Positions 39,001-45,000 of a stretch of DNA of 64,000 bases are shown piece by piece. Made by a program: the position numbers. Numbering within the stretch: the stretch's first letter is position 1; each line of letters starts with the position of its first letter. The stretch is taken from assembly GCA_017622175.1 (NCBI GenBank), contig JAGARQ010000023.1, positions 2,429 through 66,428 of the forward strand. The letters are read 5' to 3'. This DNA comes from Bacilli bacterium. Lineage in GTDB: Bacteria; Bacillota_I; Bacilli_A; RF39; UBA660.

Positions 39001-42000
39001 CTATAAATTTCTTATCAAAACTCCAATTTGATGTCATATTAAAACCCCTCTCAAATGTGCACATATTATATCATATTTTCTAATAAAAATCAAGAAAGGC
39101 AACCTTTTAGTTGCCTTTTTGTTTATTATAATAGTCATAGTTTCCAATAATTTTTGTTATCTTTTTATCTTTTAGTTCTAAGATATGAGTTGCGACTTTA
39201 TTTATGAAATAACGATCGTGTGAAATAAATAGAATTGTTCCATTAAAGTCTATAAGAGCATTTTCTAATATTTCTCTTGTATCCATATCAATATGGTTAG
39301 TTGGTTCATCTAATATTAAGAAGTTATATTTATTTTGGATTAAACAGAATAGTTTTAATCTTACTTTTTCTCCTCCTGATAAATATTTGATTTTCTTATG
39401 AATTGTATCTCCTGCGAATAAAAACTTAAATAGTGCTGAACGTAGATGTTCTTCTGGTCCAATAAAGTGTTTTCTTGCTTCTTCTAGAATTGATGCTTCA
39501 CTATTTTCAAATATTATTTCTTGAGGAATATAACCTAGTTTAATATTTGTGCCTAGTTTTATACTTGGATTACCCTTTATTATTTCTTTTATAAGAGTTG
39601 TTTTACCAGTGCCATTTTCTCCAATAAGACAAGCTTTTTCTTTGTAGTATAATTCTAGTTTTACTTTTTCTAATAATTGTTTATCTTTGAAGCCGAGATT
39701 TAAATTTTTTAAAGTTAAAACATCATGACCGGTTCTTGATGAATCATTAAAATCAACATTTAGTTTTTTCTTTTCTTCTGGTCGATCTAATTTTTCTAAC
39801 TTTTCTAATCTTTTTTCAATACTTGCGGCACGTCTATAGAAAATTTCTCCTCCTGAATCTCCACATAGGTGAGCAAATTCTCTTAATTTTTTTATAGATT
39901 TTTTCATTGCTTCAATTATTTTTTGTTGGTCTTTATATGCTTTGAATTCTAGAAGCAATCTATTTTCACTTTCTTTTATAAAATATGAATAATTTCCAAA
40001 ATATGATTCAATTCCACGTTTTGTTAATAAAAATACTTTATTTACAACTTTATCCAAGAAATATCTGTCGTGAGAGACAATTATTACTGTACCTTTATAG
40101 CTGTTTAAATAATTTTCTAACCATTCTATTCTTCGAATATCTAAATGGTTAGTTGGTTCATCTAAAAGTAAGATATCAGGTTCTTGAAGTAATAATCTTA
40201 TTAATGAGCAGATTGTTTTTTCTCCTCCAGATAAACTATTAAAGTTTCTTTGTAACATTTCATCAGTTACATCGAAGGCTGCGAGAACTTTGCTTATTTT
40301 TGTTTCATATTCATATCCACCTTTATCAATAAAAGTTTCTTGAAGTTTTGTATATTTTTCTATTGCTTTTATATCACTGGTTAATTTTTCTTCTAGAGCT
40401 TCTAGTTTACTTTTTAGTTCTAATAAACTATCGAATGCACTATATATATAATCTTTTATTAAAATATCATTTGCTTCTGGTATTTGGCTTAAATAGCCAA
40501 CTACAGCATTTTTTCTTATTGATAATTCTCCACTATTTGGCGTTTCTATTTTACTAATTATTTTTAATATTGTTGTTTTACCTGATCCGTTTGTTCCGAT
40601 TAAGGCAACTTTTTCTCCTTTTTGGATTGTCATATCTATATCTTTTAAAACTATCTCTGTTCCGTATGACTTATTTATTTTACTTAAATTTATATCTATC
40701 ATAATTACACATCCTTTTTCTTACAAATTAAAAACTATACAAACACCTGTATAGTTTCTTTTTATACAGATGTAAGCACGACGAAAAGATCACACCTACA
40801 TCTTAAATTTTTTCTTTATTTAGGATGCAAGTGTGACAGTTAATGTATACATGATTTTTTTACCTACGTAATTTTGCATTACTATCACTCCTTGTATATA
40901 ATTTATTACATTTTTGTTAATTTGTCAATTTGTATGCTATAATTAAGAAGATGGGAGTGGTTTTATGGCAAAGAAAAAGTGCGATGTATGTGGCACAGTA
41001 TTAAAAAATGGGCAAACTACTTGTAGTGGATGTGGTATGCCACAAGTTGATTTAAAAAAGATAGCTAAGGGGGAATTTAAAAATAGTAATAGTAAACCTA
41101 GTTATACAACAACTGATCAAGATACTATAAAAATAATTGATAGACTTGATTTATATGCAAAACTTATAAAGATAATTGCATTCTTTTCAATGATTGGAGT
41201 TGCGATATATTCGATTTTTACATTTAAATGGTTATTGTTGGTTGGATGTGTTGTTTTCTACTTTGTATTACCTTTTATACCTTTACCTATTTCATGGATG
41301 AGAATGATGTTAATAAATGTTTTTGAAATTAGAATGAAAATGAAGTAAGGAGTGTTATTATGAGTGAAATGTATCAATTATTAGATGATTTAAATTTAGC
41401 AAAATGTAGACTTGAAGGCTGTGGTGACGAAAGTGTTGTTGGTCAACTTAATCATCAGGCTTATGAGAGAACCATAGAAAAAGTACAAAATAGTGGAAGA
41501 AGTTATTTTGGTAATGATAATTTGAGTTGTGATGATATTAAAAATATGGTTTTAACTCAACTTGCTGATAAAGCGAAAGACTTTTTAGGACAAGATGTAA
41601 ATCAAATGGTAGAAGCAATCGCTGATTTGGATGAACTTACTAGTTCGGCGCTTATTTGTATGGAAAACGCATTAAATGCAAGGAAAGATGAACGTAGCGG
41701 ATTTTATTATAGTAATATGTTTAGAATTGATCGTGAATTTCTTGGAAAGTTTAGTGATGAAGATATTGCTAAATTCGAAGCACTATCAAGTTGTCTTATT
41801 GTTAATATGGAAACAAATGAATCTAAAACTTCGGGAAAATAAAAAGAGACTTATTAGTCTCTTTTCTTTTTTTAGTGGCGTCCCTGGCCAGACTCTAACT
41901 GGCGACTTATCCCTTAGGAGGGGATTACTCTATACAACTGAGTTACAGAGACAGATAAAGGACTTTTTAGTCCTTTTAAATTTCTTGAATAACAGTAATA

Positions 42001-45000
42001 ATCATTGGTTTTGATTCTGTTTCTTTATAGAAGAATTTTCCTAATACATCACGTACTTCATTTTTTATTTTTGCATAGTCTACTCTTTTTGAGTTTAAAG
42101 TTATACTTTCTTCAATTACTTCACGTGATATTTGTTTTGTTTCTTCTAATAAATCTTGACTTTCTTTTACGTAGATAAATCCACGAGTTAAGATTTCTGG
42201 TCCACCTAATATTTCTTTTGTTTCTTTATCAAGCGTACAGCTAATGATTACAATTCCGTTTTCTCCTAACATTTCACGATCTTTTAATACTAGATCTCCG
42301 ATATCTCCTTGACTCTTACCATCAATTAGGATTTCATCTACTTCGATATGTTCTAAGGAGTTTGTATCTTTTCCGTTTACTAATTCTAAAACATCACCAT
42401 TTTGTTTTAAAATTATATTTTCTTTTGGAATACCTAATTCTTCTGCGATTTCTGCATTGGCATATTGATTTCTATATTCACCTTTTACAGGAAAATAATA
42501 TTTTGGATTCATTAGGTTAATCATTAACATTAAGTCTTCACTTGATGCATGGTGTAGTAAATGTTTCTTACTAGAAAGACTTACTGCGTTAGCACCTAAC
42601 ATAGCAATTTCATCCATAATTACAGCAGTTCTTTTTTCAATTCCTTCATAGCTCGGTTCAGTTATAAAGATTGTATCTGTTTCTTTAATTTTGATGAATT
42701 TATCATATCCTTTAATAATTCTTTCTAAATTAGCAAATGGTTTTTCTTTTTCGTCAGAAATTAATACTACTGTATCTTTTAATTCTAAATCAGTTAATGA
42801 ACCAATTCTGTTTTGATCTATTGTTAGATAGTTTTCTTCTATTGCTCTTGCAATCATATCTTGCAGAACTTTACCCATTATAACAATCTTTCTATGAGTT
42901 TTTGAAACTTCATTAAATATTTCTTGTATTCTATAGAAATGAGCTGGTAGAATTGTTGCGATAATTCTAAATTCATTCTTATTTAATACTTCTCTTACAA
43001 AGTCTGATACTCTATTATTTGGACTTGTGTGCCCTTTTTTAGCAGCATACATTGATTCTGCAAGTAAGCATAGAACTCCTTGTTTTCCTACATAAGCAAG
43101 TTTTCCAATATCGGTTTTATAAGAACCCATCATTGTTGAATCAAATACAAAGTCTCCTGTGTAAACTATAGCTCCATCTTCCGTATATAATACATAACAA
43201 ACTGCATCCGGAATTGAATGTGTTACACTAATTGGAAATAAAGCATTTTTACCAAAATCTAATTTTGAATGTGGTCTTATTTCTTTTATAACTGCTTTTT
43301 GTAATTGTTCTGTTGTTAAATCGTTTTTAACAATTTCTAAAGTTAATTTAGTACCATATACTGGAATATCTGGAATAACATCTAAAATGTCTGGTACTGC
43401 TCCCATATTTCCTTCATGCCCATGAGTTAAAAAAATACCTTTAACTCTATTTTTGTTTTTTACTATATAATCAAAGTTTGGAATAATATAATCAATTCCT
43501 AAATTTTGATCATTGTCGTATTTTAGTCCAGCATCGAAAACGAAAATATCTTGGTCAACTTCTACAACATACATGTTTTTACCATTTTCATTTAGTCCAC
43601 CTAAACTAAATATTTTAATTTTACTCATTGTTTTCTCCTTTCACTCTTAAAAATACCCATTTATTCTATAAATTGATTTTATTATTTATATAAATTTTAA
43701 TCCGATAAAAGAAAAAGAATTTAGTAATTCTTATTTATTAATATAATAAAGGGTCTTAAAAATAACATAGTAATTATACCATCACTTTATTAAAATAGCA
43801 ATTAATAATTACTTTGCTAGTTTTTCCAATGCGCTTTTTGCAGCTTCTTGTTCTGCTTCTTTTTTTGATGTTCCAACTCCTGTACCGTAAACTATGTTAT
43901 CGATAATAACTTCTACTGTGAAATTTTTTTCATGAGCCGGACCTTCTTCTTTGACTAAATTATATGTTAGGCTCTTTTGATATGTTTGAACATATTCTTG
44001 AAGAGAACTTTTATAATCACTAAAGAAAGTAATATTTGGATCTTCGATAAATGGAACAATTATATTTAAAGCAACTTTTCTTGCTGTTGCATATCCTAAG
44101 TCAACATAGATTGCACCAATGAATGCTTCAAATATATCAGCTACAATGGCTTTTTTATACTTTCCGCCTTCTTTTTCTTCACCATGCCCTACTTTTATAT
44201 ATTTATTTAATCCTAAATTTGCTGAGTATTCAGAAAGAGCATTTTCGCATACGTAACTTGCACGTACTTTAGTCATTTCTCCTTCTTTTTCAGCTTTATT
44301 ATTATATAAATAGTCAGCTACAACTAAATCTAATACAGCATCCCCTAAAAATTCTAATCGTTCATAATCTGCTTTTGCTTTATGTTCATTAGCATATGAA
44401 CTATGTGAAAAAGCTGTTGTATATAGAGTAAGATTTTTTGGTTTAATACTAAGTTTATTAAATAATTCTTCCATCTTTAATCACCATTAACATTATATCA
44501 AAATACTTTAATTTAGTATACTTATAATTGCTATTTTTTCTAAATTATAGTAAAATCAAAATTGTATAAATGATAAGGTTTACAGGAATTATTTTTTATA
44601 ATAAAATAATTAACCGTGGTGATTATTATGAAGAAAATTTTAATTTCTATAATCAAAACATATCAGAAGATTCCAGGAAATTGGCATAATAGTTGTAGAT
44701 ATGTACCTACTTGTTCTAATTATGCTATTGAAGCAATTAATACATATGGATGTGTTAAAGGAAGTATTCTTGCTATAAAAAGAATATTAAGATGTAATCC
44801 TTGGGGTGGAACTGGATATGATCCTGTACCTTTAAAAAAGGAGAAAAAGAAATGAAAAAAATTAAGTTATTTGGTTTGATTATTATATTGATGTTTATAT
44901 GTTTAATTAGTTCTGGGTGTACTAATGATAATATGGAAAATATAAGAGTACTTGTTACAAATTATCCTAATGAATTTATTACTCAGAGATTATATGGAAA

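Follow-up and report, generated by a model that had tools for sequence, protein, structure and literature searches.

The published zinc ligands of Bacillus subtilis RNase J1 are H74, H76, D78, H79, H142, D164 and H390 (PMC5383250), and its HTSGH loop forms the 5'-phosphate pocket, in which S366 and H368 are involved (PMC7864078). RNase J2 enzymes do not retain the HxHxDH motif and bind one Mn ion (PMC7864078), and the ligands of the second zinc are non-conserved among them (PMC5383250). In Staphylococcus aureus J2 the motif reads HGHEHA, and its active site is dispensable, the protein contributing structurally to the J1+J2 complex (PMC3937233), while B. subtilis J2 carries HGHDEN, has a 1000-fold weaker exonuclease activity and is a specificity factor for J1 (bioRxiv 10.64898/2026.05.27.728192). 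Across these four reports a degenerate second-metal site is already established in print as a hallmark of J2 enzymes. The C-terminal domain of characterised RNase J enzymes has a role in oligomerisation/dimerisation (PMC7864078; bioRxiv 10.64898/2026.05.27.728192).

Here we analysed a 64-kb stretch of DNA (64,000 nucleotides, referred to as the window) which encodes an RNase J2-type paralog of 550 aa, rnjB, on the minus strand (41976..43628; ATG start, stop codon at 41976..41978), identified from the ORF list, profiles, PDB matches, clade and fold. Pfam detected Lactamase_B (PF00753), RNase_J_b_CASP (PF22505), RMMBL (PF07521) and RNase_J_C (PF17770) end to end and in that order, which is the domain order of the RNase J family (metallo-beta-lactamase, inserted beta-CASP, RMMBL, C-terminal domain), with the C-terminal domain at aa 447-550 (41979..42290, minus strand; 101.8 bits). 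The protein scored 448.7 bits with the 'RNase J family' model TIGR00649 (cut-off 400) and 460.4 bits with the RnjA model NCBIfam NF047419, which is below the curated cut-off of 820. Solved J1 and J2 structures align to residues 4-550, and the closest PDB sequences are the S. epidermidis/S. aureus J2 enzymes (6k6w, 8yyk; 406-407 bits, with the best match a J2 at 407), followed by B. subtilis/Staphylococcus J1 (3zq4, 6k6s; 359 and 337 bits); the collinearity with J1 and J2 proposed in the earlier note is thereby borne out. An AlphaFold model (pLDDT 75, pTM 0.64), which supports the assignment at the level of fold and not the geometry around Lys382, gave RNase J entries as its top 42 Foldseek matches in the PDB (E down to 1e-52), with chain A of the RNJ2-RNJ1 integrative model 9a5v ranking first and crystal structures of RNase J1 and J2 coming next. 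In public records the protein is named only 'ribonuclease J'.

We aligned the protein to B. subtilis J1 using MAFFT L-INS-i, and the alignment was gap-free around the motifs. The seven J1 ligands H74, H76, D78, H79, H142, D164 and H390 correspond to H69, H71, G73, N74, H137, D159 and K382, so that the first metal site is intact (H69, H71, H137 and D159) while each of the three ligands belonging to the second metal alone has been exchanged (D78 to Gly, H79 to Asn and H390 to Lys), and the complete two-metal set is not present (H, H, G, N, H, D, K). The loss of zinc ligands described in the earlier note thus holds for the second metal, but the four first-site ligands remain. Re-translation confirmed both of the motifs it had read, HGHEGN at aa 69-74 (43407..43424, minus strand; D78 to G73 and H79 to N74) and VKGE at aa 381-384 (42477..42488, minus strand), in which Lys382 (42483..42485) takes the J1 H390 position, and the PIHGEYR that it gives for B. 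subtilis J1 agrees with the sequence, which reads MPIHGEYRM. The retained first-site ligand His137 lies in motif III, THSIPD (43218..43220, minus strand), and the retained bridging ligand Asp159 in motif IV, TGDF (43152..43154, minus strand). Likewise, the J1 HTSGH loop (H364-H368) is replaced in the alignment by HLLHH at aa 356-360 (42549..42563, minus strand), keeping both His residues and exchanging Thr-Ser-Gly for Leu-Leu-His. Since the alignment is gap-free around the motifs, motif II is substituted and not displaced. Furthermore, HGHEGN is not a sequencing error, because 114 of the 120 nearest homologues in the database likewise read THGHEGN (the remainder being THGHESN in five and THGHEGK in one).

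A full two-metal set marks the catalytically canonical RNase J and not the family as curated, in which J2 is accepted without it. Among 55 representatives of non-canonical RNase J, Lys is the most frequent residue at the H390 position (18/55), while Gly is seldom found at the D78 position (1/55), and its presence there is the sole lineage-specific detail of the window protein. Staphylococcus J2 has the motifs HGHEHA and PVQGE, and its fifth ligand is His80; as Gly73 removes this ligand, single-metal binding may itself not be assured, judging from the sequence. The suggestion that its degeneracy matches or exceeds that of RNase J2 is accurate in that the protein is a J2, and marginally more degenerate than that of Staphylococcus because Gly replaces the Mn-binding His80.

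In a neighbour-joining tree, a distance method and not maximum likelihood, the window protein grouped with P0066, P0121 and P0124 within the clade holding Staphylococcus J2 (100% bootstrap) and outside the J1 clade, while the other paralog of the lineage (P0422, P0215) grouped with B. subtilis and Staphylococcus J1 (86%). We conclude that the protein is the RNase J2 ortholog, rnjB, of a gut Bacilli lineage that is uncultured and low in GC (27%). A survey of representatives showed that some members of the J2 clade have a fully intact site and many others are degenerate in different ways, a range that lends itself to working out which ligands are needed for J2 function. P0125, which has an intact HGHEDH, had been tried as a J1 representative and was set aside, being nearer to Staphylococcus J2 (668 bits) than to B. 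subtilis J1 (593 bits) and falling in the J2 clade.

Using tblastn, no second rnj was found within the 64-kb window. A canonical RNase J had been anticipated elsewhere in the genome, and the search for one with HGHEDH recovered MBO5120312.1 (P0533), which carries THGHEDH, THSIPD, TGDY, HTSGH and PFHGDYR and reaches 749.5 bits with the RnjA model, compared with 460.4 for the window protein. The record MBO5120594.1 (P0001) is 100% identical to the window protein and lies 282 accession numbers from MBO5120312.1; for the exact window genome, the pairing of J1 and J2 in one MAG rests on these neighbouring NCBI accession numbers and not on a contig. MAG binning is fallible, but one case is independent of it. 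J1 P0532 lies on ENA scaffold XIEF21-1_SAMN15829893_METAG-scaffold_1 (1,386,041 bp), and J2 P0033, which is 95% identical to the window protein, belongs to a genome with exactly one contig above 1 Mb, of the same size, showing that J1 and J2 share a single 1.386-Mb scaffold there. Both paralogs are also encoded in GCA_030536635.1 and in six representative genomes of GTDB, and the accession block of RGIG2101 contains the two as well (MBQ2909445.1 and MBQ2910034.1); a query made as a trimmed chimera of three proteins recovered both J1 and J2 from genome contigs. J1 and J2 therefore occur together in all ten genomes where the partner gene could be traced, namely the MAG of the window and nine others of the lineage. 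The canonical J1 paralog of the lineage adjoins rny. RGIG2101, whose J2 is 97% identical, was considered as the species of the window and rejected, as a nucleotide identity of 84% indicates a different species. The longest scaffold found for the lineage is 1.39 Mb with 27% GC, and its MAGs are variously labelled Bacilli, Mollicutes, Mycoplasmatota and Erysipelotrichaceae in public records.

We next consider what the protein does. Taken together, our analysis indicates that rnjB very probably encodes the RNase J2 partner or specificity subunit of RNase J1, weakly active or inactive by itself, with rnjA in the same genome. By comparison with the J2 enzymes of B. subtilis, S. aureus and S. epidermidis, the protein would bind at most one metal ion, and, as in characterised J2, would be expected to have little or no 5'-to-3' exonuclease activity. 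Its main mode is anticipated, from homology, to be association with RNase J1 by way of its conserved C-terminal domain, in which case catalysis by the heteromer would take place at the J1 active site, with J2 supplying stability and substrate choice, although a weak one-metal endonuclease activity may persist. The partner role suggested in the earlier note agrees with the presence of a canonical J1 in the MAG of the window and in nine further genomes of the lineage. B. subtilis D449 has an equivalent in D442, while R544, reported to be critical for J2 function, corresponds to Ser539 with Lys540 adjacent, and the interface with J1 may differ accordingly in this lineage.

The protein could also be an independently active one-metal endoribonuclease, in which the site formed by H69, H71, H137 and D159 binds one Mn2+ or Ca2+, as in S. 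epidermidis J2, and the protein cuts RNA internally by itself, making it a second nuclease and more than a scaffold; this is compatible with a partner role, and we regard it as possible but doubtful. Throughout the lineage the four first-site ligands do not vary. The J2 of S. epidermidis, with its one bound Mn, is an endonuclease (PMC7864078), and E. faecalis rnjB is reported to encode an active ribonuclease (PMC5383250); strong purifying selection is also compatible with catalysis having been kept. However, a structural metal explains conservation of the site equally well, and the critical residues of S. aureus J2 are H80 and E166 (PMC11815676), the first of which is Gly at the corresponding position of the window protein. 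Furthermore, active-site mutants of S. aureus J2 are without phenotype (PMC3937233), and in those of B. subtilis J2 the half-lives of targets are unchanged (bioRxiv 10.64898/2026.05.27.728192). A further reading, which we consider a long shot, is that the amino group of Lys382 might replace the missing second metal electrostatically and, with Gly73 and Asn74, form a one-metal-plus-lysine centre in 'K-type' J2 enzymes; the recurrence of Lys at the H390 position, where it is the most frequent replacement across the J2 clade, is its sole support. If true, 'K-type' J2 would be real nucleases of different chemistry and not passive partners.

Examination of the gene neighbourhood confirmed the rnc-rnj-tRNA-Arg arrangement, with all three genes on the minus strand. 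The RNase III gene rnc (43809..44474; Pfam Ribonucleas_3_3, Ribonuclease_3 and dsrm) lies upstream of rnjB across a 180-nt spacer, and the rnc-rnjB order recurs in related contigs. Within this spacer a promoter-like TTGCTA-17-TATAAT with a TG element (43773..43801, minus strand) is a consensus match only, and a weak site, as the count of promoter-like sites in the region is no greater than in shuffles. A tRNA-Arg(CCT) gene (41876..41952; ARAGORN) begins 23 nt past the rnjB stop, and a tRNA-Arg is found downstream of rnjB in 7/8 of the related J2 loci scanned. Rfam missed this tRNA at the gathering threshold when run on the whole window but scored it at 58.9 bits in a local run, so the miss was due to filter loss and not to an odd tRNA. 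An 8-bp hairpin lies between the rnjB stop codon and the tRNA (41957..41976, minus strand), and just past the tRNA, between convergent transcription units, there is a palindromic terminator-like hairpin flanked by T and A runs (41842..41865, no strand assigned), the folded region of which has a z of -4.5.

This conserved position between rnc and tRNA-Arg(CCT), together with the non-conserved residue at the R544-equivalent interface position and the altered 5'-phosphate loop, would be in keeping with a neofunctionalised protein independent of J1, for instance one that binds RNA in connection with RNase III or with tRNA-Arg processing. We find this improbable, however, because gene neighbourhood by itself counts for little, conservation extends to the C-terminal domain and the D449-equivalent, J1 and J2 co-occur in all ten genomes with a traceable partner gene, and no further domain has been gained.

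The two remaining explanations have next to nothing to recommend them. That the protein is the sole RNase J of the organism, and hence the active enzyme despite its degenerate site, would agree with the absence of another rnj from the window but is scarcely credible given the canonical J1 in the same MAG, the single scaffold carrying both paralogs, and their joint presence in GCA_030536635.1 and the six GTDB representatives. We give equally little credence to a functionless gene or pseudoenzyme drifting and decaying since duplication, for although three catalytic ligands are gone and J2 dN exceeds J1 dN by a factor of ~1.6 when the same genome pairs are compared, rnjB is under strong purifying selection (dN/dS 0.03-0.12, with dS saturated), its 550-aa ORF is intact in every relative examined, the degenerate motif II is itself conserved, and the related loci examined show the same rnc-rnjB-tRNA-Arg order.

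The window protein is thus correctly named RNase J2 (rnjB) and the rny-adjacent paralog rnjA, which has little significance beyond annotation, and the occurrence of a J1/J2 pair with a degenerate second site in J2 extends to a small-genome gut Bacilli lineage known from MAGs alone.

Among known systems, B. subtilis RNase J2 (RnjB, formerly YmfA) has the same four-domain architecture as the window protein, keeps the first-site ligands and likewise has a canonical J1 alongside. P0134, which carries HGHDEN like the published B. subtilis J2, shares a K/R-type subclade of the neighbour-joining tree with the window protein, and both have Asn at the H79 position, with H390 replaced by Arg in P0134 and by Lys in the window protein. 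They differ in that HGHEGN has no acidic residue at position 78, the D164 position is Asp in the window protein and Glu in P0134, R544 of B. subtilis J2 is set against Ser539/Lys540, and identity is only ~33%; unlike B. subtilis J2, the window gene also sits between rnc and tRNA-Arg. In Staphylococcus J2, crystal structures show a single Mn held by first-site residues (PMC7864078), and both H79 and H390 are lost, as in the window protein, but to Ala and Gln and not to Asn and Lys. Staphylococcus His80 (at the D78 position) and Glu166 are Gly73 and Asp159 in the window protein, and its 5'-phosphate loop is HASSH where the window protein has HLLHH. RNase J1 (RnjA) belongs to the same family and fold and is collinear over its full length, but unlike the window protein it possesses the full set of seven ligands together with the HTSGH loop and is the active 5'-to-3' exonuclease. 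More distant fold matches, at Foldseek ranks 44-50, are to beta-CASP subunits of Integrator and U7 snRNP. CPSF100 with CPSF73 and IntS9 with IntS11 are eukaryotic, ~15% identical and derived from a separate duplication, making this an analogy of principle and not orthology, but they follow the same logic, in which a metallo-beta-lactamase/beta-CASP nuclease is accompanied by a ligand-degenerate paralog, and J2 has itself been likened to such inactive beta-CASP partners of active paralogs (bioRxiv 10.64898/2026.05.27.728192).

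The rnjB gene (41976..43628, minus strand) opens with an ATG and encodes 550 residues, with all four Pfam domains of RNase J in the order Lactamase_B, RNase_J_b_CASP, RMMBL and RNase_J_C. The protein scored above threshold for the NCBIfam family model TIGR00649 (448.7 bits; cut-off 400) and below threshold for the RNase J1 model NF047419 (460.4 bits; cut-off 820). Alignment to solved structures covered residues 4-550, with Staphylococcus RNase J2 as the top match (6k6w/8yyj, 406-407 bits) and J1 structures ranking lower (B. subtilis, 3zq4, 359 bits; Staphylococcus, 6k6s, 337 bits). 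The leading structure matches of its AlphaFold model (pLDDT 75) were all RNase J entries, with 9a5v (an integrative RNJ2-RNJ1 model, chain A) ranked first.

RNase J1 binds its first zinc through H74, H76, H142 and D164; D78, H79, D164 and H390 coordinate the second (PMC5383250). Using L-INS-i alignment, window residues H69, H71, G73, N74, H137, D159 and K382 corresponded to H74, H76, D78, H79, H142, D164 and H390 of B. subtilis J1, and the motif neighbourhoods were free of gaps. Since the aligned residues match the first-zinc ligands (PMC5383250), the first metal site is intact; the three ligands that only the second site uses are, as judged from the alignment, all substituted and none is displaced. 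The degenerate motifs described in the earlier note, HGHEGN (aa 69-74; 43407..43424, minus strand) and VKGE (aa 381-384; 42477..42488, minus strand), were thus borne out in every detail by re-translation and alignment, being replaced rather than shifted relative to J1. In addition, the window protein reads HLLHH where J1 has the HTSGH loop, which forms the 5'-phosphate pocket and in which S366 and H368 are important (PMC7864078).

We then placed the protein among its homologues, using the best 150 cluster representatives from 1.84 billion proteins, of which 142 were full-length. Among these, the canonical seven ligands were present in 87 of the 142 and incomplete in 55; within the latter, Lys was the most frequent residue at the H390 position (18 cases) and Asn the most frequent non-His residue at H79 (7 cases). 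In a neighbour-joining tree (54 sequences, 551 trimmed columns, 100 bootstraps) the window protein grouped with the database proteins P0066, P0121 (56% identical, HGHEEN/PIRGE) and P0124, nested within a clade containing Staphylococcus J2 (100% support), and J1 of B. subtilis and Staphylococcus formed a distinct clade (86% support). Loss of the HxHxDH signature from RNase J2 has been stated previously (PMC7864078), and the motifs of B. subtilis J2 (74-HGHDEN-79; bioRxiv 10.64898/2026.05.27.728192) and S. aureus J2 (76-HGHEHA; PMC3937233) show degeneracy of the same kind as HGHEGN. Clade placement and these published motifs therefore identify the protein as an RNase J2 ortholog and not a novel degenerate form. 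Both the observation and the interpretation in the earlier note were correct; the pattern it described is the textbook RNase J2 signature, already known, and the finding is useful for annotation.

One member of the J2 clade, P0125, which scores higher against Staphylococcus J2 (668 bits) than against B. subtilis J1 (593 bits), keeps all seven ligands (HGHEDH and PVHGE), so loss of the second site is not universal in this clade and probably has more than one origin. A J2-like sub-clade (P0123, P0130, P0159, P0136, P0164, P0221 and P0246) mostly retains an HxHED/EH-type motif II, with Ile/Val at the H390 position and frequent Asn at D164, and represents a separate route to loss of the second metal site. 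A further RNase J of 995 aa, P0220, contains an intein (Intein_splicing and LAGLIDADG_3, residues about 359-806) that interrupts the HxSGH 5'-phosphate loop (LHVS / intein / HNSGHA).

There is no second rnj in the 64-kb window. P0215 is an ortholog of J1 from Bacilli (the two J1 structures, 591.7 and 590 bits; J2, 392 bits) and comes from MAGs titled 'Bacilli bacterium' or 'Mycoplasmatota bacterium', as for the window protein. One assembly, GCA_030536635.1, encodes a J2 that shares 92% identity with the window protein (P0066) as well as a J1 (P0422); the contigs are JAUNPR010000003.1 and JAUNPR010000014.1. The database entry identical to the window protein (P0001, MBO5120594.1) lies 282 accession numbers from a J1-type protein (P0533, MBO5120312.1; THGHEDH, THSIPD, TGDY, HTSGH and PFHGDYR; 749.5 bits to the RnjA model), and this proximity indicates a single MAG submission. 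In RGIG2101, a different species, P0022 (J2, 97%, MBQ2909445.1) and P0534 (J1, MBQ2910034.1) were paired in the same way. A further J1, P0532, sits at ~1.02 Mb of the 1,386,041-bp ENA scaffold XIEF21-1_SAMN15829893_METAG-scaffold_1, and the largest contig in the record of the J2 protein P0033 (95%), with exactly one contig >1 Mb, is also 1,386,041 bp. Finally, when genome contigs were scanned with a J2+J1+J1 chimera query, at least six GTDB representatives (CAYXZZ, CAZTRE, CAMOGG, JAZRPV, CAMNUE and CAKPHH) carried both THGHEDH/PFHGD and THGHE[GS]N/PVKGE genes among the 80 loci listed of 580 confirmed. A canonical RNase J elsewhere in the genome, the key test of the earlier note, is thus supported by five lines of evidence, and the pairing of J1 and J2 in several lineage genomes refutes the alternative that the window protein is the organism's only RNase J.

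In relatives, rnjA has ftsY on its upstream side and rny on the other, and recA is close by downstream (rnjA-rny at 6001..9673 of contig L006 and 4001..7665 of L104). A small DUF1016_N gene lies between rnjA and rny, and two major RNA-decay nucleases, RNase J1 and RNase Y, are thus encoded in one cluster. The lineage also has genes for sporulation and germination, encoding SpoIIP and the germination protease Peptidase_A25 (5319..7301 of L001, a contig that matches window 31976..53628 at 99.9% identity; window ORF 46328..47272, minus strand). G+C content is 27% in both window and lineage, the longest of the scaffolds found measures 1.39 Mb, and public records label these MAGs Bacilli, Mollicutes, Mycoplasmatota, Tenericutes or Erysipelotrichaceae.

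The 550-aa ORF is retained in all relatives examined. For J2, dN/dS across seven genomes was 0.02-0.11; comparing the window gene with the same seven gave 0.03-0.12. These ratios are approximate because dS is saturated; for the same genome pairs, dN of J2 was roughly 1.6x that of J1. Of the 120 closest homologues, 114 carry THGHEGN, and THGHESN, THGHDGN and THGHDSN occur in more distant species. The aligned lineage J2 sequences showed no variation in the first-site ligands, in Lys382 or in the two histidines of HLLHH. The window rnjB is a constrained protein and not a decaying copy. Lineage members have dS of ~1 or higher between them, yet strong protein conservation; window 39053..47523 and RGIG2101 are 84% identical in DNA over 8.5 kb, with J2 proteins 97% identical.

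The rnc-rnj-tRNA-Arg order noted earlier is present in the window. rnc lies 180 nt upstream of rnjB on the same strand, and the spacer contains an extended -10 promoter-like site, although shuffled sequence yields such sites at least as often. Beyond the rnjB stop codon, an 8-bp hairpin precedes tRNA-Arg(CCT) (41876..41952, minus strand), which begins 23 nt from that codon. Of eight related J2 loci scanned, seven also have this tRNA 3' of rnjB (window 41876..41976, minus strand; also L003, L027, L029, L073, L075, L081 and L098). This position, and a palindromic terminator-like hairpin found only 3' of the tRNA, suggest a plausible mRNA-tRNA co-transcript. The tRNA has a D-loop without the usual GG and the T-loop UUAGAGU. 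At gathering threshold, Rfam applied to the whole window reported four tRNAs but not this one, a loss caused by the speed filter and not by any property of the tRNA, which scored 58.9 bits in a local run (41879..41952; gathering score 29). Convergent on the tRNA terminator are two adjacent plus-strand ORFs with no Pfam match on record, 40965..41348 (127 aa, N-terminal CxxC...CxxC motif, hydrophobic C-terminal stretches) and 41360..41842 (160 aa), and similar-sized ORFs occupy the equivalent position in related contigs L001, L002, L016 and L108.

Several features of the window J2 are established: it has the fold of RNase J, one of its metal sites is intact and the second is absent, the 5'-phosphate loop is altered, the C-terminal domain is conserved, the protein coexists with J1, and its gene is under purifying selection. 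S. epidermidis J2 holds one Mn through first-site residues and His80 and has only weak, chiefly endonucleolytic activity (PMC7864078, PMC11815676). In S. aureus, J2 deletion but not active-site mutation gives a phenotype, which led to a model in which J1 supplies the active site and J2 has a structural role in the J1+J2 complex (PMC3937233). In B. subtilis, J2 exonuclease activity is 1000-fold weaker, H76A leaves target half-lives unchanged, and J2 was proposed as a specificity factor for J1 (bioRxiv 10.64898/2026.05.27.728192). From these experiments we assign the same role to the window J2, which would serve the lineage's J1 as a partner and specificity subunit; any endonuclease activity of its own would be residual and depend on one metal. 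The fifth metal ligand of Staphylococcus J2 is, however, absent from the window protein, where the position is Gly73. In place of B. subtilis R544, a residue reported to be critical to J2 function, the window protein has Ser539 with Lys540 next to it, whereas the equivalent of B. subtilis D449 is conserved as D442.
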